Below, piece by piece: positions 1,465-54,733 of a DNA stretch of 64,000 nucleotides. The DNA is from an uncultured Desulfovibrio sp. Lineage in GTDB: Bacteria > Desulfobacterota > Desulfovibrionia > Desulfovibrionales > Desulfovibrionaceae. A program made the translations under genes and the position numbers. Where the stretch lies: the NCBI GenBank assembly GCA_964647835.1, contig CAZYJQ010000004.1, forward strand, positions 2,212 through 66,211, in the 5' to 3' direction. Under the pieces are notes generated by a model that made no database searches, was not told where the DNA came from, and saw only the letters and a list, made by a program, of their open reading frames with translations. Each line of letters starts with the position of its first letter. Within the stretch, counting starts at the first letter, position 1.

Positions 1465-2316
1465 TCAGCCAACATTCCCCAGATAAACATGACGAAGATA
1501 TTGACGTGCCTGTTGTGCGAATCTGTCTAAAAGGTTCAGGCTTGTAGGGGGCTCAGTGTAGTTATGCGCTGGAAAATAGCGTGAAAGATGTAAGGGAATA
1601 TCAGGGTTGAGCTTTGATAGCCAACGAACAAATTCCATAAAATCTTCAGGGTTATCAGCCAATTTTGGGACCAGCAGACGCGTCACCTCTACATGCCTGC
1701 CAGCTTTTACAAACATCTCAACATTACGCTTCACCCTCTCCAGGTCCCCCCCCATGCGAGTGTAATGGCGGGCGCTGAATGTTTTCACATCAATATTAAG
1801 GGCGGCGACATGCTGAACAAAGGCTGACCCAACCTCGTCTGAGAACATGCCATTAGTCACTAAAACAGTTGCTATACCTGCCTCATGAAGTTTTGGCGCT
1901 CCAGAACAAATAAATTCCGCCTGCAAGGTGGGTTCGTTATAGGTAAAAGCCAGCGAAGAAAGGTTATACTCCCTGCAAAGGGCTATGCATTCCTCAATGG
2001 TCAAAGAGCGCATGGGGGGAATCTCTACGGGCTGGGCAATGGAGGCGTTCTGGCAGAAAGGGCAACGCATGGTACAACCAAGGCTCCCCAAGGAAAGGAT
2101 AAAAGTTCCGGGTTGCCAATGGTAAAGGGGCTTTTTTTCTATGGGATCCACCGCCAGAGAGCAAAATTGCCCAAGATAAGGCGATATCAGCTCTCCTTTC
2201 TCATTATGCCGAACACCACATACCCCTGTTTGACCGGGGGCCAATGAACACTGTCTGAAACACAAATGACAACGAACAGTGTTTTCTTTCTCTTTGGTCC
2301 ACCAACGCGCTTCCAC
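1465..2316 (-). CDS. amrS: AmmeMemoRadiSam system radical SAM enzyme
   Basis: N-terminal CHLC...C..CGVR, AVDPIEKKPLYH, CTMRCPFC (CxxxCxxC), FTYNEP, LHLSRYFP, C-terminal VYLGNV. Confidence 0.92.
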   Translation of the reverse strand: MEARWWTKEKENTVRCHLCFRQCSLAPGQTGVCGVRHNEKGELISPYLGQFCSLAVDPIEKKPLYHWQPGTFILSLGSLGCTMRCPFCQNASIAQPVEIPPMRSLTIEECIALCREYNLSSLAFTYNEPTLQAEFICSGAPKLHEAGIATVLVTNGMFSDEVGSAFVQHVAALNIDVKTFSARHYTRMGGDLERVKRNVEMFVKAGRHVEVTRLLVPKLADNPEDFMEFVRWLSKLNPDIPLHLSRYFPAHNYTEPPTSLNLLDRFAQQARQYLRHVYLGNVG

Positions 2317-2951
2317 TCTTCCCCCTTCCTTTATTAAGGGTTACAACCCTTGTTTTTGCAAGCCACACCCTCGTGTGAACTGGCCTTTCTTTTCATTTCA
2401 CCTGAAGAAATCCTCTCCCAACAACGCTAACCAAAAAACAGGAATCATTCTGATACAATGCCATGCCTGAAGAATCAGCAGACAACCAATGAACAAAAAT
2501 GGAAAGGGAGACGAGAAAAAGTAAAAACAAATACAAAGGAAGTGTCTGCAAGGTTCAAGGAACGTAGGGCAAAGCAATGGACAAGAAAACGGGCAAGGAA
2601 CGTATCGGGCACATTATTGAACCGGTCTAAGGTAAAGATTCAACGAAAAGACCAGCCTTACAACCGACCTGAAAATATCGAAACCCTCAACAGGCAAACG
2701 TAACAAGGAATAAGTACGGGAATTACAAGGAGGGTTTCAGAAGAATTGTCTGGCGAACTCCCAAAGAGCTATTGGCGAACGAATCATTGTACCGTTTAGA
2801 GGACAGCCAGAGTCCTGGACTGCCTGAGCTACGGGCAAACGGTCTTGTTGGCGAGTTGCCAGTCTCGCGGGTTGCCGCAACTCACAATGGAAGGTCTATC
2901 TGACGGTTGCCGCTATTGTCAAAGGACATACCAGACAATGCACCAAACCAA

Positions 2952-4340
2952 TTATTCGACCTCGTAATACCGATCAACGGTAAAACGTTCTATGGACGCG
3001 CCTTCCAGCGAAGAGATGCCCCCCTTTTGAGTGGCGATGGAAAGCTGTTTTTCAACACTATCCACGCCGTCCAAAGCGGGTAACAATAGTCCTCGCCTGT
3101 TCCCTTTGGAAACAATAACCCCATACTTTTGGGGGTCAAGGGTGGTGATATCTTGGACGAGTTCTGGAGCACTAAGGATATCAACAGACAAGGTGATGCT
3201 ATCAAATTCTTCAAGGCGCAGGGAGGGAAAGCGTGGATCTTGAGAGGCCGCGGCAATGGCGTTGCCCATAATTTCATGCAATAAGCTATCACGGGTGGGT
3301 AAAATGGTGCCGATGCACCCTCGCAGGTCGCCCTGAGCGTTTTTGATGGTAACAAAACATGCCCTTGGCGAATCCAAAAGGCTACGCTCTTCCTTGGGCA
3401 TTTGCTCAAGAGTTCTGGCTACTGTACCCGTTGCCAAAGGTTTTCCCGATAAATAACTTGTAATGGCAAGGCGCGCCAGCAAGGGAAGTTTTTTTGAAAG
3501 GCCGCCGCTTTGCTTGAGGGCTTGACGTGGCCCGTCTTTATCAAGAAAAGCGAGAGCCGTGCAATAGCCAACGCCAAAGGGCCCTTCATAAGACATAATT
3601 TCCACAGGCCCGCCCGTAAGACCAAGGAGGGCGCAAACAGACTTACAGCCACACTCGCCGGCATTATGCATCTCTTGGACAGAAAGGGATAACAACGGCT
3701 TGGTAGAACCTTGCATGAGCGACGCTAAAATCGCTTTATCAAAAACTTTACCAGCGGGGTCATACCCCCCGGGAGCGTCGTGGGTTAACCTGTGCGACAA
3801 ATCGCCACTTGCCACAAGCCCCCAGGTAGCGCCGTCGTCATACTGCGCAAGAACCTCTCCCAGTTTTTCTGCCTGCTGAAGGCTCAGACCAATGGGATTA
3901 AAACAATAAATTTCTGGTAGTTTCTGCCAAGCTTTATCAAAAAAGTAGAGAGGGACAAGGGAACCGTGATCACGTGTCAGGTCTTCGGACGGCTGTTGAG
4001 CCACAGGAAGAAATTGCTCTATATGACGGACAAGACTACTAAAGGTGCTCGAAGAGTTTTTCATGCTTAATCGAACGTTAGCCGCCCCAAAGGGTTCGAA
4101 GGAACCGCTCATGGCAGAGGCAGAGTTGGCGTAAAGCATGCTGGAAACGTAAGGTTGGTGCAGTGAAAGCACCAAGAGTTTATCAGGAATCAGGGGCGAT
4201 TGTCCTCCCTCGCCGTAGAGCCTGTCGATGATTTTTTTAATACCTAAAAGAGTCGCTTCGGCATCTTTTTGCCTACCACACCCTATTTCAGGGATAAGAA
4301 TTGGGGGATGTGGCATTAAAGCCGCCCATAACCAGGCCAT
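2952..4340 (-). CDS. amrA: AmmeMemoRadiSam protein A: LigB/MEMO-like N-domain fused to AMMECR1 C-domain
   Basis: MPHPP, DHG, SGDLSH, GECG, SYEGPFGVGY; C-domain ACFVT, LRGCIGT, DPRF, GLLLPAL. Confidence 0.9.
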   Translation of the reverse strand: MAWLWAALMPHPPILIPEIGCGRQKDAEATLLGIKKIIDRLYGEGGQSPLIPDKLLVLSLHQPYVSSMLYANSASAMSGSFEPFGAANVRLSMKNSSSTFSSLVRHIEQFLPVAQQPSEDLTRDHGSLVPLYFFDKAWQKLPEIYCFNPIGLSLQQAEKLGEVLAQYDDGATWGLVASGDLSHRLTHDAPGGYDPAGKVFDKAILASLMQGSTKPLLSLSVQEMHNAGECGCKSVCALLGLTGGPVEIMSYEGPFGVGYCTALAFLDKDGPRQALKQSGGLSKKLPLLARLAITSYLSGKPLATGTVARTLEQMPKEERSLLDSPRACFVTIKNAQGDLRGCIGTILPTRDSLLHEIMGNAIAAASQDPRFPSLRLEEFDSITLSVDILSAPELVQDITTLDPQKYGVIVSKGNRRGLLLPALDGVDSVEKQLSIATQKGGISSLEGASIERFTVDRYYEVE

Positions 4341-6054: not shown

Positions 6055-7305
6055 CTACTTTCGAATGAGGTAGTCGCCCGAACCAATCCACTTATATGTG
6101 GTCAAGGCGTTCAACCCCATGGGCCCACGGGCATGAAGTTTTTGAGTACTCACCGCCACCTCGGCCCCAAGGCCAAATTCCCCGCCGTCAGTAAAGCGAG
6201 TGGTGCTATTCACATAGACCGAGGACGAATCCACATCCCGACAAAATAGTTCCGCATTATGCATATCGCTCGTTAAAATAGCGTCAGAGTGCTGGCTCCC
6301 GTATTCCCGAATATGCGCAACGGCCTCTTCAAGTCCCGCGACAACACCAACGTTTAAGTCAAGGGACAACCATTCGTCGCGCAGCTCTTCGTCCTTCCAC
6401 GGCACAATTCCCTCTGCCCCAGACAAAATTGCCATGGTTTTGGGGCAACCGTGCAAGGTCACACCTTTACTCCGCATAAACTCGGCCATGGTTGGCAAAA
6501 AGTTCTGAGCAATGGCTTCATGCACCAGCAAAGTCTCCATAGTATTACAAACACTGGGACGTTGGACCTTGGCGTTTTCCAAAACAGGCAAGGTTTTTTC
6601 CAAATCCGCTGTTTCGTCAACAAAGATATGACACACCCCAATACCACCCACAATAACGGGAATGGTCGATTGCTCCAGACACAGGCGTTGAAGTTTAGCG
6701 CCTCCACGAGGAATAATCATATCAACATAGGCATCGAGTTTTAAAAGTTCACTCACCAGTTCGCGGTCAGGGTTATCTATGAACTGTACGCACGATGCGG
6801 GGAGATTGCACCAGCCTAGGGCACGATGAATGGCCTGAACAAGAGCCTTGTTGGTGGCGAGGGTCTCTCTGCCCCCCCGCAAAATAACCGCGTTACCTGT
6901 CTTAAGACAGAGCGAAGCCACATCGATGGTCACGTTGGGTCGAGCTTCATAAATAACCCCGATGACCCCCAAGGGAACGCGCCGTCTGGTCAGGGAAAGT
7001 CCACTTTTAACATAGCCACCGTCCATAATCTGACCCACGGGGTCTTGCAGCATAGCCACTGACTCCACGTCTCGGGCAATGCCCTCCAAGCGCTCGTCGG
7101 TTAAAAGCAATCTATCCAACATGGCAGGCGAAGTGCCATCAGCTCTCGCCTTCTCCATATCAGCAGCATTGGCCTGAAGAATAAAGGCGCTACTTTCACC
7201 CAAAGCCTTGCTAATGGCTAAGAGTAAGCTATTTTTTTCAACCGTTGAAAGACGGGCCAAGGTGTAAGAAGCTTTTTTCGCCTCTTGAGCCATGTTGAGC
7301 AACAT
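6055..7305 (-). CDS. proA: Gamma-glutamyl phosphate reductase
   Basis: [34 protein letters not shown] (catalytic Cys), [13 protein letters not shown]. Confidence 0.97.
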
Positions 7306-7532: not shown

Positions 7533-8636
7533 CTAAGAGCCAAGCATAAACAATTCATCGCGGTGAATCGCCACCGAGCCATGTTCATAACCTAAGATAG
7601 AATGAATATCCTTGGATTTTCGCTTCATAATCCGAGCAAGGTCATCGCTGTCATAGCGCACCACACCATGAGCCAAGTCAACCCCGCCCATGCTGCGCAC
7701 GCTCACCACCTCGCCTCTGGCAAAGCGGCCTTTGACCTCGACAACACCGATGGGCAGGAGCGAGCCGCCACCCTTGCGCAAGGCTTTTTCCGCTCCTTCG
7801 TCCACCACCAAGTTTCCTGCGATGGGCGCTCCGAATATCCATTTTTTACGCTCCACAAGGGAACGAGCAGAAGCATGGAAACGAGTTCCCACCTCTTCGC
7901 CCTCTACAATACGGACAAGAACATCTTTGGCGTCACCATGGGCAATGACCACATCAATGCCAAAACTACAAGCGTAACTGGCGGCCTGAATTTTTGTGCT
8001 CATCCCGCCGGTTCCAAGGCCTGAGACGGCACCACCCGCCATGGCGCGAATCTCATCGGTAATACTCTCCACATGGGAAATCAGCGTGGCGGAAGGGTCC
8101 GTATTGGGATTGCTGGTATACAGCCCGTCAATGTCGGATAAAAGAATCAATAAATCAGCGCGGGCAAGGCCAGCGACCAGAGCGGAAAGCTGGTCATTGT
8201 CGCCCACTTTAATCTCAGCCACGGCAATGGCGTCGTTTTCGTTAATAACAGGGATAATGCCATATTCCAAAAGAGCCAAGAGCATATCACTGGCGTTTAA
8301 AAAGCGCTCTCTGTCTTCAAGGTCAGCCCTCGTCAAAAGCATTTGCCCGACAAAAAGCGAATAAATCGAAAAAAGCTGTTCCCAAAACTGGATGAGCTTG
8401 CTTTGCCCCACGGAAGCAAGAAGTTGTTTATAGGCGATGCCGGGAGGTAAGTCAGGATAGCCTAAAAATTCTCTGCCAGCGGCTATGCCACCTGAGGTAA
8501 CGAGAATAACACGATGCCCTTGCTCCTTAAGGGCGGCGCACTGGCGCACCACTTCAAGCATACGGGCTTTATTCAGCTTTTTGGTGCCCCCGGTTAAAAC
8601 ACTGGTGCCAAGCTTGATAACAATTGTTTTTTTCAT
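7533..8636 (-). CDS. proB: Glutamate 5-kinase with C-terminal PUA domain
   Basis: Start [12 protein letters not shown] at 8636; [23 protein letters not shown]; PUA region VDEGA...RGEVV. Confidence 0.97.
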
Positions 8637-8637
8637 A

Positions 8638-11217
8638 TTATTCAGCGCATTCCACAAGGGTTTTTTCAATGCCTTCACGCAAGTGCTCAGCAAACCAAGC
8701 GCTTGAGCTCTCGCCAGACAAGGTAGCGTCTACTTGACGGGTATGGACAACGATATGACCAAGGATATTCAGGAGGCGATAGGCTTGAGCCGCCGTCAGC
8801 TCCTCCGCCACGGCAGAAAGGGTATCTTCCCGCACATCAACAATAAACCCATAATCAGTCAAAGCCGAGGAGATGGCCTTTACCCGCAGTTTACGCCTTC
8901 CAAGGTTGGCGGCGCCGCCCTTGAAGTGGAAACTCACGAAGTTTTCCATGGCGTGCTCGCCCGCCTGACACTCCACTGTGCAAAAATGGTAGCCAAAACT
9001 CGCCTGCAAGTTACAGTAATCCCGGCTCACCAAAAAATAGTTCCGCATGAGTCTATTGGACTGGCTTGTTACTTCAAGCTCAGGGTTACAGGCGCTTTCA
9101 GCCACAACGGATAAAAAACCTCTGCCCGTTGAACCTGCAGGAACGAAGGGCACTGCTAACATCCCGTCCCACAAAGCCTGCATAGGGCGACAGCAAATAT
9201 CCGTCATATCAATATATTTCCCCTGCACCGGGGAACAAAAACCGTCTTCGATATCAACCACAAAGTACTGAAGAGCCGCGCCCTTATAGCGCAACTGCTT
9301 ACCACAGCGCTCGGCGAAGATAGAAGTGTCCATGCGGAACATTTCCTCAACGGCCTTTTCATGACAAAAACGAGTTATGTCATGGAAAGTTCTACACGCT
9401 TCAGGGGTAAAATTATCGGCTTCGGGGTCAACCAGGTTCAAAGGTACAATATAAGGCACAATCTGACCAAGGCGCTTGTGGATGGGCGAGCCCATGAACA
9501 AAGTCCTGGGTCGGACATGCTTGGGTAAATTCTTTAAAACGCCTTCGAACACACGGCAATTATTGGCGTCCAAGGTCACTTCCGTGCCCTCTTCAAGGCT
9601 GTCATACGCCCCTGTCGCGCCAAAAAGCGCCGGAATGCCGTATTCTCGCGAAACGCTGGCAAGGTGGCCCGCTTTACCGCCCACCTCCGCTACCATGCCC
9701 GCCACCTTGTTTAAAACAGGAGCCCAGCGAGAGTGCGCCTTTTCAACCACAATAATAGCGTTTTCTGGCAAATCAAGCATATCCTGGTCGTTACGCAACT
9801 TGCGCACAACCCCGGCCACAACACCGGGACTGGCACTCACTCCGCCTTCGGCCAATATTTTTTCTGGTCCCGTATAAGGAGGGATAGCGCTTTTACGCCC
9901 AACTTCAAGCAAGGGACGGCTTTGAAGAAGAATAAACTGCCCGTCTTCATTAAAGGCCCATTCAACGTCTTGGGGCTGTCCATAAAAAACCTCCATGCCC
10001 ATGGCAACGGCGGTAACTTCCAAGACCTCTTCGTCACTCAACGAAGACTGGGTTCCCTCTTCGTCAGAGAGCAATACTTCTAAGACACCCTCTCCCTTAC
10101 GGGATAAAATCTTCTTTTCCTTTTTAGCAATCTTGCGTTCTAAAATAGTATGCGGAACCTCACGACTGACATAAAAAACGTCGGCATCAGCCGAACCGTC
10201 CACAATACTCTTAGGCAAGCCAAAGACCGAGTTAATAACGACAGGGCCATTGGGTTCCAAGGGATCGCTGCTGTACGCCACACCACCCGCTTTGGCGTCA
10301 ATCATAGCCATAATCCCCACGCTCATGGGCATTTCGTCGTCGGGTATCCCTCTATTGAGGCGATAGGTCATGGCGGTGGCGCAATACTTACTGGCAATAA
10401 CACGTTTATAGGCTTCGATAACATGCGTGGGCGGGACGTTCAGTTCAGACTTAAACTGCCCGGCAAAGGAACTGCCGTGGGCGTCTTCGCCAATGGCGCT
10501 ACTGCGCACGGCAAAGCGAGCGTGCTCGGGCAAACCGAGGTCTTTAACGCCCTTTTCAACGGCTTCGGCAAGCTCCGGGGGCATTTCAGCTTCAAAGATA
10601 AGCTTTTGAATGGATTCGCTCACGCTAAATACGTTATCGAGCACGGTAAAATCCGCGATTTGCATACGCCGCCCAATCTCTTCCATAAGATTGTTGTGCG
10701 CGAGAAACACGTTAAACCCATGGGCGGTAACCACCACCCCCTGGGGTGTGGCTTGGCCCAACTGCTTGGCGGCCTCGCCAAGGCTCGCCATTTTCCCCCC
10801 CACCTCGTACATGCGGGAATAGTTGGCTTGCTCCAAGGGAATAACAAGGTCTGAGCCCGTGTCGCGCATGCGCGGCGCCAAAAGAGCCGCCAAAGGTTCT
10901 TGAATTTCCTGAACCTTGTGGTTCAAAACCTCATAAGAATCTTCGGTGAGGCTGTTTAAGTGGCGCACCATATTCATGACGCTCGCCACGAGGGTGAGGC
11001 ACTGGCTACGCACATAGCTCATGTTAAAAAAGGTCTCGCCACGCATGGCGTCTTCAAGGTTCGCCATGGCCACAAGCGCCTTTTTATTCGCGCTCAATAA
11101 AGAGCGAAAATGGCGGCATCTGGCTTGAAACGCTTTGCGTATAACTTCTTCGTGCTCTTGTTGACGGAGTTTTTTGGTTCCGTTTATTCTTTCTAAAATA
11201 CCCTTAAAAAAATTCAT
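8638..11217 (-). CDS. PEP-synthase/PPDK-like protein: ATP-grasp domain, phospho-His swivel domain, unknown C-terminal domain
   Basis: [36 protein letters not shown]; His domain [18 protein letters not shown]; no pyruvate-binding barrel motifs; start 11217 or 11256. Confidence 0.85.
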
Positions 11218-11236
11218 CGTATTACTACCATGCCGG

Positions 11237-11599
11237 CTAGATGTTTTTTTCGACAAGACTCCTTAAGCTACCGATGAGATCGTTGATGCTCACCGGCTTC
11301 AAAAGATAGTCCGCCGCCCCCCGCTCTATGCACGACATGGCTGTTTGGGTGTCTGCGTGTCCCGACAACACCAAAACCGGCAAATCTTCAACCACCCGGC
11401 GCAAGGCCTCAAGGGTGGCAAGCCCGTCCATACCCGGCATTTTCACGTCTACTACAGCAACGTCCACTTCTTCTTTCTCTATCAGCTCCAGACCCTTCTC
11501 GCCCGAATCGGCGCATATGACTGAAAAACCCCGTTTTTCCAAACGGTTTTTCATAAGCTCCAAAAAGTCCGTTTCATCATCTATAAGTAATATACGCAT
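11237..11599 (-). CDS. Stand-alone response regulator receiver
   Basis: LIDDE acidic pair, phosphoacceptor VVDVKMP, LSG, LLKP; 120 aa with no output domain. Confidence 0.93.
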   Translation of the reverse strand: MRILLIDDETDFLELMKNRLEKRGFSVICADSGEKGLELIEKEEVDVAVVDVKMPGMDGLATLEALRRVVEDLPVLVLSGHADTQTAMSCIERGAADYLLKPVSINDLIGSLRSLVEKNI

Positions 11600-51860: not shown

Positions 51861-53345
51861 GTGATAAAAACTAAAAACCGCCTTTTCCCGTCCAGACTTA
51901 AACGTAAGGCGGGTTCAAACCCCTTAACTTACGCCCGCTATATCGCCCTTATCTGCTTTATCGGGGTGGCTATCTTTTCTGGTGTGCTTTCTTTTTACGC
52001 TGGGCGGGGTGTCCAAAACGCCCTCATTGAAAAAGACAAGCAAACTGCTCGAATTCTGGCTAACTACCTCGACAAACAGATATTCAGCCGTTTTACTCTG
52101 CCCACCAGCATCGGCTTTGGTTTTATCAGCCTGCAACACCCAGCCCAATACCGCCACCTCGACCAAGTCGTTACAACGATTATTCACGGCCTTGATGTTG
52201 AGCGAGTGCGCATTTTCAGCCTCGACGGCATTGTCACCTACTCCACCGACCAAACCGAGGCCGGCCTTGAAAATCTTGCCAGCCCCTCTATCGCCGTAGC
52301 CGATAATTACGAAGGGCCCATTTTCGACATCGATGGATCGGTTCCCTACTGGAAGCTCCTTATCCAGCACCCTTCGGTGGAGCCAAACTCCATTGTTCTG
52401 CGAACAACCTATCCTTTGCGCCTGCAACATCGCCTTCCCTCAACGGGCGAAGAAAGTCCTCCCATTTTGGGGATTTTAGAATTCACTCAAGATTTGACAA
52501 CGGAATACCTTGCAACCACACAGCTTCAAACCTTCTTCTTCGCTGTCAGCTTTGCTTGCGTTATTATTCTTATCTCTGTTTTATTGTTCATTATCAAAAG
52601 AGCCGAAAAAACGGTTTCGGCCAGCATAGCTGAGGAACAACGCCTTACGGAAGAACTGCACCAAAGTGAAAAACTCGCCAGCATGGGCCGGGTTATCGCG
52701 AGTATTGCCCATGAAATCCGCAACCCCCTTGGGATCATTCAATCAAGCTCGGAGTTACTTCTTAAACGCAACAACGGAGCCGATGCCCTCACCAGCAGTA
52801 TTCTCACCGCCATTTATGACGAATCTAAACGTCTTTCGCAAACGGTCAGCGACTTTTTAGATTATGCCAAGCCCCATGTTCTTAAAAAAGACCCCGTTGA
52901 CACAGCTCAGCTCATTCAACAAGCCCTGACCTTCCTCAAGCATGAAATTGACAACAAAAATATCGACGTCATCACCACCATGCACCATGAAAAAGTCTAT
53001 AACACCCTTGGGGATAGCGATTATCTCTATCGCATGATATACAATATTATCAGCAACGCCATCCAAGCCACAGGCGAGGGAGGCACCATTCTTATCAATC
53101 TTGCTGAACACAAATCCCCCGAAGCCGTTATCGAGCTTACCTTTCAGGACACGGGCTCGGGCTTCGCCGAAGAAGACCTCCATCGGTTAACCGACCCCTT
53201 CTTCACCACAAAAGACCATGGCACAGGCCTCGGGCTCGCCATAGTCCATAATATTCTTACAAGCCACTCTGGCAAGATGGAACTTTCAAACGCACCAGAG
53301 GGCGGCGCCATTATCCGCCTCACTCTGCCGCAATTTAGTGAATAG
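51861..53345 (+). CDS. Membrane sensor histidine kinase (NtrB-like)
   Basis: Two TMs, AHEIRNPL, SNAIQA, DTGSGF, FFTTK, GTGLGL. Confidence 0.95.
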   Translation: MIKTKNRLFPSRLKRKAGSNPLTYARYIALICFIGVAIFSGVLSFYAGRGVQNALIEKDKQTARILANYLDKQIFSRFTLPTSIGFGFISLQHPAQYRHLDQVVTTIIHGLDVERVRIFSLDGIVTYSTDQTEAGLENLASPSIAVADNYEGPIFDIDGSVPYWKLLIQHPSVEPNSIVLRTTYPLRLQHRLPSTGEESPPILGILEFTQDLTTEYLATTQLQTFFFAVSFACVIILISVLLFIIKRAEKTVSASIAEEQRLTEELHQSEKLASMGRVIASIAHEIRNPLGIIQSSSELLLKRNNGADALTSSILTAIYDESKRLSQTVSDFLDYAKPHVLKKDPVDTAQLIQQALTFLKHEIDNKNIDVITTMHHEKVYNTLGDSDYLYRMIYNIISNAIQATGEGGTILINLAEHKSPEAVIELTFQDTGSGFAEEDLHRLTDPFFTTKDHGTGLGLAIVHNILTSHSGKMELSNAPEGGAIIRLTLPQFSE

Positions 53346-53347
53346 CT

Positions 53348-54733
53348 ATGAACAACAACAAAGACGCGCGTATCCTCATCATTGACGACGAACGAAACTA
53401 CCTCCTCGTTCTTGAAGCCTTGCTGGCTGATGAGGGCTATACCATAACGGCGCTCAACGACCCCGAGATGGCCCTGGCTTTCATGGATGAATCCGAAGTC
53501 GACGCTGTCATTACCGACATGAAAATGCCCAAGCTTTCAGGCAAGGAAGTCCTGCAGGCCATCAAACGCGACTACCCCGATATCCCTGTGCTGGTCATGA
53601 CCGCCTTTGGCTCCATTGAAAGCGCCGTAGACCTCATGAAAATGGGCGCCTTTGACTATATTACCAAGCCTTTTGCCAACGATGACCTCCTGCTTTCCAT
53701 CCACAACGCCTGCGAGCTGTCCAAAGTGCACCGTCGCTACAGACTGCTTCATGAAAACTTAGAACAGCAATACGGCCTGCATCAGATTGTCGGCGCCAGC
53801 AAAGCCATCAAAGAAGTTCTCTCCCTTGTGGACCGCGCCGCCCCAACCAAAAGTAATATCCTTATTTCAGGTGAATCTGGTACGGGCAAAGAACTGGTGG
53901 CTCGCGCCGTTCATTTCGCCTCCTCGCGCAAAGAAGGGCCCTTTATTAGCGTTAACTGCATGGCCTTAAACACCGGAGTTTTGGAAAGCGAGCTCTTTGG
54001 TCACGAAAAAGGCTCCTTTACAGGGGCTGTGGCAACTCGCCGAGGTCGCTTCGAACTTGCCCATAACGGAACGCTCTTTCTGGATGAAATAGGCGAATTA
54101 TCTCACGATATGCAGGTAAAACTGTTGCGGGTATTGCAAGAGCGAAAATTTGAACGCGTGGGAGGCACGGAAGAAATAGAGGTGGATATTCGCATTGTCG
54201 CCGCCACCAATAAAAATCTTCTGGAAGAAGTAGAAAAAGGCACTTTTAGGGAAGACCTCTACTATCGCCTCAATGTCGTTCATATTTTGCTCCCTCCCTT
54301 ACGAGACAGACGCGAAGACATCCCCTTGCTCATAGCGCATTTCATGGCGAAAATAGCCGAAGAAAACGAAATCTCGCCCAAAGCCATTTCATCGGAAGCC
54401 ATTCAGCTTCTGACAAGTTACGAATGGCCCGGCAATATTCGCCAGCTCCAAAACATTTTAGAACGCTGTGTTGTTCTTTCCCAAGGCAACGCCATTGAAG
54501 CAGGCGACTTACCCGCTGAAATTCATGACAACGAAACCCAACTTAGAAACGCGTTGGATCTTCTGCCCGTTGAGCTTGACCTTGCGGAAACTCTGGACAC
54601 CTTGGAAGCCGCCATTGTGCGGCGTGCCCTTGTAAGAGCCGACTTTGTTCAAGTAAAAGCCGCGGAACTCCTAGGCATCTCTAAAAGTCTTTTACAGTAT
54701 AAACTTAAAAAATACGGCATCACGGGGCATTAA
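53348..54733 (+). CDS. Sigma54-dependent response regulator (NtrC family)
   Basis: Receiver [33 protein letters not shown], Fis-type HTH. Confidence 0.96.

Follow-up and report, generated by a model that had tools for sequence, protein, structure and literature searches.

Phosphoenolpyruvate (PEP) synthase and PPDK (EC 2.7.9.2 and EC 2.7.9.1) consist of a PPDK_N domain, a swivel domain with a catalytic His and a third domain that folds as a PEP/pyruvate TIM barrel. The Thr of their GGxT(S/C)H motif is the target of the PSRP/PDRP regulatory proteins. Rifampin phosphotransferase and PigC/RedH perform two-step dikinase chemistry with a family-specific acceptor domain, which stands before a C-terminal swivel. 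PTS Enzyme I uses the same swivel His to hand phosphate to a protein, HPr, and so provides a precedent for a protein acceptor. Here we describe a gene pair on the minus strand of a 64,000-nucleotide (nt) stretch of DNA from an uncultured Desulfovibrio sp. (contig CAZYJQ010000004.1 of assembly GCA_964647835.1; hereafter the window). Its first gene encodes a single-domain response-regulator receiver and its second a PPS-like dikinase, protein P0005, that carries an undescribed C-terminal domain (C-domain) in the place of the barrel. Galperin et al. (2018, PMC5847659) listed receivers fused to dikinase-type enzymes (REC-PPDK; Bacteroides, Heimdallarchaeota) among the response regulators whose output is enzymatic, whereas the receiver in the window is a separate gene.

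A similar pair belongs to the nitrate cluster known in D. vulgaris Hildenborough and D. alaskensis G20 (Korte et al. 2014, PMC4001038). That cluster comprises genes for a TauE permease (DVU0251), a hypothetical protein (DVU0250), a PtxB-like protein (DVU0249), a kinase (DVU0248, a pseudogene in Hildenborough), a 119-amino-acid (aa) receiver (DVU0247), a PPDK-like protein (DVU0246, 2235 bp) and a dual-specificity phosphatase (DVU0245). Strong nitrate resistance followed when transposons disrupted the genes for the permease, the receiver or the PPDK-like protein, and also when the G20 kinase was mutated, while the Hildenborough phosphatase mutant had negative fitness, opposite in sign to the other cluster mutants. 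The authors proposed that nitrate enters non-specifically via a thiosulfate transporter, and gave the PPDK-like protein no biochemical role (PMC4001038). In a 2025 study of Desulfobacteraceae, DASS sulfate-transporter clusters were rich in dCache kinases, which were proposed to be sulfate sensors (PMC11887813). Dikinase domain structure is discussed in neither paper.

In the nitrate cluster, as in the window, the receiver (DVU0247, Dde_0603) adjoins a PPDK-like protein (DVU0246, Dde_0604) with the same C-domain, and the window pair appears to be a paralogue of this pair. The C-domain was found in AlphaFold DB entry Q72FG7 (E = 1.8e-21), which we take to be DVU0246, its 744-aa length fitting that gene. 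The window dikinase is longer (859 aa), and the two are about 28% identical in the C-domain. Genes for TauE, a small conserved protein, a kinase and a phosphatase lie beside the nitrate pair, but only proB and proA lie beside the window pair. The nitrate phenotype is known from mutants of the Hildenborough and G20 clusters.

The receiver and the domains of the dikinase

The receiver pocket contains D7/D8, the phospho-acceptor Asp51, S79 and K101. Alignment of 39 orthologues showed D7, D8, E9 and D51 to be invariant and K101 to be nearly so. With its receiver fold, acidic pocket and conserved Asp, Ser and Lys, the protein has the features of a CheY-like single-domain response regulator. A preliminary description of the locus had reported an intact stand-alone receiver (DD, phospho-Asp, S, K) within about 20 nt of a protein of about 860 aa; all of these residues were found, the gap measured 19 nt and the protein 859 aa. 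We placed the start of the dikinase at the ATG at 11217 (MNFFKG...), which agrees with the N-termini of all homologues aligned, and the frame is already open from a TTG at 11256, which would give 872 aa. Open reading frames (ORFs) antisense to the dikinase gene (e.g., 10150-10854, plus strand) were regarded as shadow ORFs.

Pfam matched the dikinase to PPDK_N (PF01326, E = 1.8e-79, profile positions 3-315 of 328) and to the PEP-utilizers swivel (PF00391), in agreement with the ATP-grasp half and His swivel described previously, and returned no third domain at E ≤ 0.1. As in PEP synthase and PPDK, PPDK_N precedes the His swivel and the nucleotide and Mg motifs are conserved. The ATP-grasp residues K142, R238, E244, Q416-D417-x-E419 and R434 were invariant in the family alignment, and H518 was invariant across 37 homologues, with a family consensus of GGxAGH. 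The regulatory Thr that precedes the catalytic His in PEP synthase and PPDK is absent from the window dikinase, where the motif reads GGKAGH, just as had been noted. To judge from these residues, the window dikinase keeps every motif for the first half-reaction, in which the beta-phosphate of ATP would pass to His518. By analogy, the same two-step chemistry as in kinases of the rifampin phosphotransferase type is expected, but the architecture differs: the swivel is central and is followed by the 288-aa C-domain. The window protein also scored far under the cut-offs of the rifampin phosphotransferase and PigC-type models (NF041857, 233.7 versus 999; NF052631, 191 versus 1300), and those kinases lack receiver linkage. 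PTS Enzyme I shares the swivel, as reflected in weak NCBIfam matches, but is charged by PEP via a barrel and has no ATP-grasp domain, whereas the window protein has an ATP-grasp domain and no barrel.

Relative to PEP synthase and PPDK, the window protein has an extra N-terminal domain of 132 aa (N-domain, residues 1-132), which matched no Pfam or NCBIfam model. Its AlphaFold2 model (predicted local distance difference test, pLDDT, 86) has helices at residues 4-58, 66-90 and 96-113, and a fold search returned generic helical bundles only. The N-domain is restricted to this dikinase family.

The C-domain, whose sequence includes [15 protein letters not shown] and FKGG, belongs to no Pfam or NCBIfam family. 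A profile built from 38 sequences (alignment A2) had no sequence relative in the PDB (best E = 0.28). Its AlphaFold2 model (pLDDT 82.7) has two beta-meander sheets flanked by helices and ends in a beta-alpha-beta-beta-alpha unit. No PDB entry matched it in Foldseek at E ≤ 0.001, the best being 2plg (E = 0.014, TM-score 0.20). VIA-align against 48,161 chains gave generic ferredoxin/ACT-like matches only (best Z 6.0), and the last ~70 residues were weakly ferredoxin/ACT-like at Z 5.0-5.8, a range common by chance. Being within the chance range, the VIA-align result for the predicted model indicates neither a new fold nor a relationship. Searching AlphaFold DB clusters and the ESM Atlas with the C-domain returned only members of the same family, and Atlas feature searches yielded nothing informative. 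In the full-length family alignment, H612, D613, R616, H619, E620, H744, N759, F763, F765, G767, G768, R778, R827, Q828 and D830 were invariant. Invariance at roughly 14 polar or glycine positions is what one would expect if the domain had a site for a ligand, an acceptor or catalysis.

Public annotations name homologues phosphoenolpyruvate synthase or pyruvate, water dikinase, and PEP synthase models were the best NCBIfam matches of the window protein, as would be the case for an ordinary divergent PEP synthase. However, of the 798 model positions only 5-473 are aligned, and the scores reached 302.3 bits against a cut-off of 598 (NF005057) and 290 against 739.75 (TIGR01418). PF02896, the barrel, had no match at E ≤ 0.1, and the AlphaFold2 model shows beta-meanders and helices without a (beta/alpha)8 pattern. 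The genome also has a genuine barrel-bearing enzyme elsewhere, a 1208-aa protein with PPDK_N, swivel and PEP-utilizers_C domains on contig C1 (L105:15562-19188, plus; C and L numbers denote contigs and loci), next to pyruvate carboxylase and biotin ligase. Comparing its C-terminal half with the C-domain gave an hhalign probability of 0.15%. We regard this enzyme as the actual PEP-forming dikinase of the genome. We therefore rejected PEP synthase identity at the level of sequence and model, and consider it very improbable. The earlier claims that the C-terminal part has no pyruvate-barrel motifs and that the protein is not a PEP synthase both survive this comparison.

The prevalence of the C-domain was assessed with a full-library profile search, counting clusters at 50% identity. 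It was present in 1457 clusters at E ≤ 1e-3 and in 737 at 1e-30. The best 150 matches were mostly proteins of ~860 aa with the domain at about 575-860. Among 201 sampled genomes of the phylum, 79 have the C-domain, at 1-12 copies per genome, and its presence is all-or-none within taxonomic families. Matches also came from Acidobacteriota, Myxococcota and one spirochaete metagenome-assembled genome.

Several variants of the architecture were observed. One family member, P0110 (1015 aa), has a universal stress protein (Usp) domain fused to its C-terminus, and several loci have tandem-Usp genes immediately downstream (e.g., L062:6951-7919, L090:8181-9149). Receiver fusions were sought among the long family representatives, where nothing but the Usp fusion and extensions without annotation turned up. 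Split or modular versions occur in other genomes of the phylum (L106, L107, L108), some with the N-domain as a separate small ORF, and all three adjoin a kinase of ~750 aa. In L108, a 639-aa protein has the N-domain, ATP-grasp and swivel without the C-domain, and receivers lie on its flanks. A possible phosphatase fusion, AlphaFold DB entry A0A353NLF0 (688 aa, named Tyr-phosphatase-domain, with a C-domain match at residues 51-323), was set aside as unconfirmed. No phosphatase was recurrent beside the window subfamily in 80 loci, and none was found in L106, L107 or L108. A kinase and a phosphatase sharing one substrate module is a lead only.

Conservation of the pairing and the location of the kinase

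To survey neighborhoods, we called ORFs in the best 80 genome loci and labeled receivers, kinases and dikinase parts with phmmer. Receiver linkage could be evaluated for 73 family members. A receiver ORF lies immediately upstream on the same strand in 42 of these, within 3 kb but not adjacent in 26, and is missing in 5. The spacer between receiver and dikinase has a median of 11 nt across 43 pairs and is ≤ 30 nt in 27 of them. Adjacent receivers are mutual orthologues scoring 80-130 bits to the window receiver, with the exception of a frameshifted copy (56 bits). The pairing of receiver and dikinase is far beyond chance. The neighborhood and fusion survey that had been suggested for this locus was positive in one respect, as co-occurrence is very strong and adjacent receivers recur widely, and negative in the other, as no receiver fusion appeared among the long representatives.

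In nearly all of the 26 non-adjacent loci, a TauE/TSUP permease of ~430 aa and a ~230-aa protein with two terminal transmembrane helices (2-TM protein) intervene. Their usual order is histidine kinase, one to three receivers, TauE, 2-TM protein and dikinase. The receiver just before TauE mostly scored 71-110 bits, roughly as high as the adjacent orthologues. Across the 80 loci, recurrent neighbors were TauE (31 loci), the 2-TM protein (28) and a DASS sulfate-type symporter (7). In the latter 7 loci, the symporter and then a kinase and receiver lie just downstream of the dikinase. The dikinase family is thus associated with anion permeases. A further example in the window genome is contig C17 (L098:461-2562, minus), which has a TauE/TSUP permease (~416-430 aa) and an unannotated ~230-280-aa protein with N- and C-terminal transmembrane helices.

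Clusters of histidine kinase, response regulator and dikinase are common among related loci, and a common order in Desulfovibrionaceae is PPS-like-2, a dCache kinase (~565 aa), receiver and PPS-like-1. In the sub-lineage of the window genome, only the receiver and PPS-like-1 are still together (L009, L011-L016, L103, L104), and therefore the receiver stayed with the dikinase and not with the kinase.

The window genome holds three C-domain paralogues. Contig C20 (L091:10390-17744, minus) has a cluster of TauE, a DUF4881 lipoprotein, a 322-aa membrane protein, a dCache-HisKA-HATPase kinase (565 aa) and a PPS-like-2 protein (855 aa) with intact catalytic motifs. Its layout matches that of DVU0245-0251 minus the receiver, and no receiver was found in this cluster. 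The C20 kinase scored 450-540 bits against kinases that directly precede receiver-dikinase pairs in other genomes. In the reverse search with the Nitratidesulfovibrio liaohensis kinase, it was the only strong match (47% identity, 542 bits; next 94 bits). By these scores, the C20 kinase is the reciprocal-best orthologue of the dCache kinase that flanks the pair in other genomes. The window receiver had been called kinase-less, which is correct of its immediate surroundings, where no HisKA protein adjoins it, but not of the genome. Most simply, these genes can be read as a single system divided between two loci, with the receiver and dikinase in the window and the kinase on contig C20.

The genome has a second close receiver paralogue at contig C1:54415-54768 (L105:7371-7781, minus), which scored 145 bits to the orthologue profile. 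It stands alone near genes for an ArsR-type regulator, a methyltransferase and sodB. The sodB gene also neighbors the receiver-dikinase pair in Nitratidesulfovibrio (L008).

Dead paralogues and a proposed mechanism of the module

The catalytic His is retained in the window protein, in the C20 paralogue and in 83 of the 98 family members examined. It is replaced by Arg in 12 members, by Gln in 1 and by Leu in 1. Therefore, the family is made up of active dikinases and pseudo-dikinases, the latter at contig C41, L008, L017-L027, L038, L039, L043, L055 and L061. In the Arg/Gln clade, ATP-grasp motifs are degraded and Lys142 is replaced wherever that region falls within the locus, while every C-domain invariant is kept. 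In Desulfovibrionaceae, the sensor kinase comes after the dead copy, and the receiver comes before the active one. The contig C41 paralogue (L092:2387-4960, plus; 857 aa), with glycerate kinase as the next gene, carries Leu in place of the His, and its ATP-grasp motifs are degenerate. It keeps D613, H744, FxFxGG, R778 and R827-Q828-D830 and has lost H612, R616, H619 and E620. Active and dead copies appear to share one C-domain function, and since the C-domain is conserved in dead paralogues, this role would not need phosphotransfer.

Our preferred reading, to which we give about an even chance, is a signalling module in which a kinase phosphorylates the receiver, the receiver switches the dikinase and the dikinase acts on an acceptor via its C-domain. 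The dCache kinase on contig C20 would phosphorylate Asp51. The single-domain receiver, which has no DNA-binding output, would then bind the dikinase and switch it. Phosphate on His518 would be delivered at the C-domain to an acceptor, most likely one tied to the anion permease (TauE/TSUP-type) and the 2-TM protein paired with it, both of which co-occur with the dikinase family. We favor an acceptor or ligand other than the receiver Asp because a cognate kinase is present and the G20 kinase mutant shares the phenotype (PMC4001038), and because the invariant polar residues of the C-domain are intact even in dead paralogues. Indirectly, these observations point to the receiver as a regulator of the dikinase rather than its substrate.

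We also predicted the complex of the receiver with the full-length dikinase alongside 3 controls. The pair scored 0.37 versus 0.00 for the best control, which supports a complex weakly. Among 80 solved complexes 58 reached the mark, as did 2 of 110 mismatched pairs. At scores ≤ 0.60, only 7 of the 80 solved complexes reached it, along with both passing mismatches. Across runs, at least 83% of contacts agreed and partner pLDDT was at least 78.

Several observations weigh against a kinase-switched dikinase that phosphorylates an acceptor at its C-domain. Neither a kinase nor a transporter adjoins the window pair, and the weakly supported complex came without a returned interface. The dead paralogues of the Arg/Gln clade keep the C-domain without the swivel His or the ATP-grasp motifs, and instead of offering an acceptor site the C-domain could serve in sensing or docking. 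In Hildenborough, the receiver still matters despite a cluster kinase annotated as a pseudogene (PMC4001038), which leaves room for another phosphodonor.

That donor could be the dikinase itself, for which the preliminary description had already raised phosphorylation of the receiver Asp, with the beta-phosphate of ATP passing through His518 to Asp51 and the C-domain serving as a docking or sensor module. The strong phenotype of the Hildenborough receiver and dikinase mutants in a strain whose kinase is a pseudogene (PMC4001038) would fit such a route. So would the adjacency of receiver and dikinase, which is tight and persists even where the kinase gene has moved away, along with the invariance of the receiver's acceptor residues, the flanking receivers of some relatives without the C-domain (L108) and, weakly, the predicted complex. 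Transfer from phospho-His to Asp is chemically ordinary, but we know of no precedent for transfer from a swivel His to a receiver Asp. Moreover, kinases of the cognate type are found in most clusters and in the window genome, and the invariant His, Asp and Arg of the C-domain resemble a ligand or acceptor site, not a docking surface. The phenotype of the G20 kinase mutant is also the same as that of the receiver and dikinase mutants (PMC4001038). We regard His-to-Asp transfer from the dikinase as possible but less likely than a dikinase switched by the receiver, and as unlikely in itself. If true, it would constitute a non-HisKA route into a two-component receiver.

The dead paralogues raise a different alternative, namely a regulator that mainly senses a ligand or acts as a scaffold, its C-domain binding a metabolite or a partner (kinase, permease or receiver), with ATP turnover only setting a conformational or energy-status switch. 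Arg/Gln copies keep the full C-domain motif set and sit beside the kinase, Usp domains occur as fusions and neighbors, and the end of the C-domain has the weak ferredoxin/ACT-like similarity described above, at Z values common by chance. However, most relatives and the window protein retain the catalytic His, and the window protein also has all of the ATP-grasp motifs, a conservation that speaks for selection on real phosphotransfer. Moreover, the usual role of a pseudoenzyme paralogue is to regulate its active partner, not to define what that partner does. On balance, a mainly regulatory role of this kind seems unlikely to us.

A bolder reading goes further. Swivel-His dikinases would be a new class of phosphodonor for two-component receivers, loading the beta-phosphate of ATP onto His518 and passing it to the receiver Asp. 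The C-domain would act as a sensor of an intracellular signal, either an anion or energy, and the conventional kinase would be modulated by the dead paralogues. We consider this reading doubtful, with a rather small probability. Were it true, one receiver controlling anion uptake in sulfate reducers would have a second, ATP/AMP-coupled input.

Surroundings of the pair and significance

The features of the locus are collected in Table 1. The proB gene is probably co-transcribed with the dikinase, given their spacing. Upstream of the receiver lie the divergent genes clpP, clpX and lon, and the arrangement of clpP diverging from receiver-dikinase-proB-proA is kept in relatives at 66-84% identity but not beyond them. 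We considered linkage to proB and proA as a family-wide clue and rejected it, as it held only in relatives at 66-87% identity and not in L009 or the other loci. A link of the pair to osmotic or ionic stress through proB and proA is conceivable. The window locus has no TauE permease, small conserved protein or sensor kinase.

Table 1. Features of the receiver-dikinase locus, in positions of the window.
Feature	Position	Strand	Details
Single-domain response-regulator receiver gene	11237..11599	minus	120 aa; PF00072 (Response_reg), E = 2e-30
Spacer from receiver stop to dikinase ATG	11218..11236	minus	19 nt; operonic coupling
PPS-like dikinase gene (P0005)	8638..11217	minus	859 aa + stop codon
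Family-specific helical N-domain, residues 1-132	10822..11217	minus	three long helices
PPDK_N ATP-grasp nucleotide-binding domain, residues 138-442	9892..10806	minus	Pfam and family alignment
PEP-utilizers swivel (mobile) domain, residues 484-553	9559..9768	minus	Pfam E = 3.8e-17
GGKAGH motif	9664..9681	minus	catalytic His518 codon at 9664-9666
Undescribed C-domain, 288 aa, residues 572-859	8641..9504	minus	no Pfam/NCBIfam family
proB (glutamate 5-kinase)	7533..8636	minus	ATG 1 nt after dikinase stop codon
proA (gamma-glutamyl phosphate reductase)	6055..7305	minus	followed by strong terminator-like hairpin at 6032-6007

The window has a single histidine kinase, ~40 kb from the pair and with an NtrC-type regulator of its own. 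These two genes are the only other two-component pair in the window and lie at 51861-54733 (plus), the kinase, of conventional type, coming first and the regulator (461 aa, with a receiver) second. At 1465-4340 (minus), a radical-SAM protein adjoins a LigB/Memo-AMMECR1 fusion with the look of an AmmeMemoRadiSam-type system, unrelated to the dikinase pair.

The chemistry of the superfamily and the existence of the gene cluster were already known. In the literature searched, the C-domain, the breadth and tightness of the coupling between receiver and dikinase, the split arrangement of kinase and receiver, and the active/dead dikinase pairs are undescribed. The family is large, often has several copies per genome and is routinely mis-annotated as PEP synthase. 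Its design is unusual in that, in sulfate reducers, a dikinase chassis is linked both with two-component signalling and with anion transporters of the TauE/TSUP and DASS types. Active/dead dikinase pairs provide a fresh example of pseudoenzyme regulation in bacteria.

A paralogous cluster sets nitrate sensitivity in model strains, and nitrate is used against souring in oil reservoirs. The family is widespread and merits biochemical follow-up. Once found, the acceptor would establish a new dikinase activity and reveal the way in which a two-component pathway without DNA binding acts, and it may also explain how oxyanion uptake is regulated in sulfate reducers.

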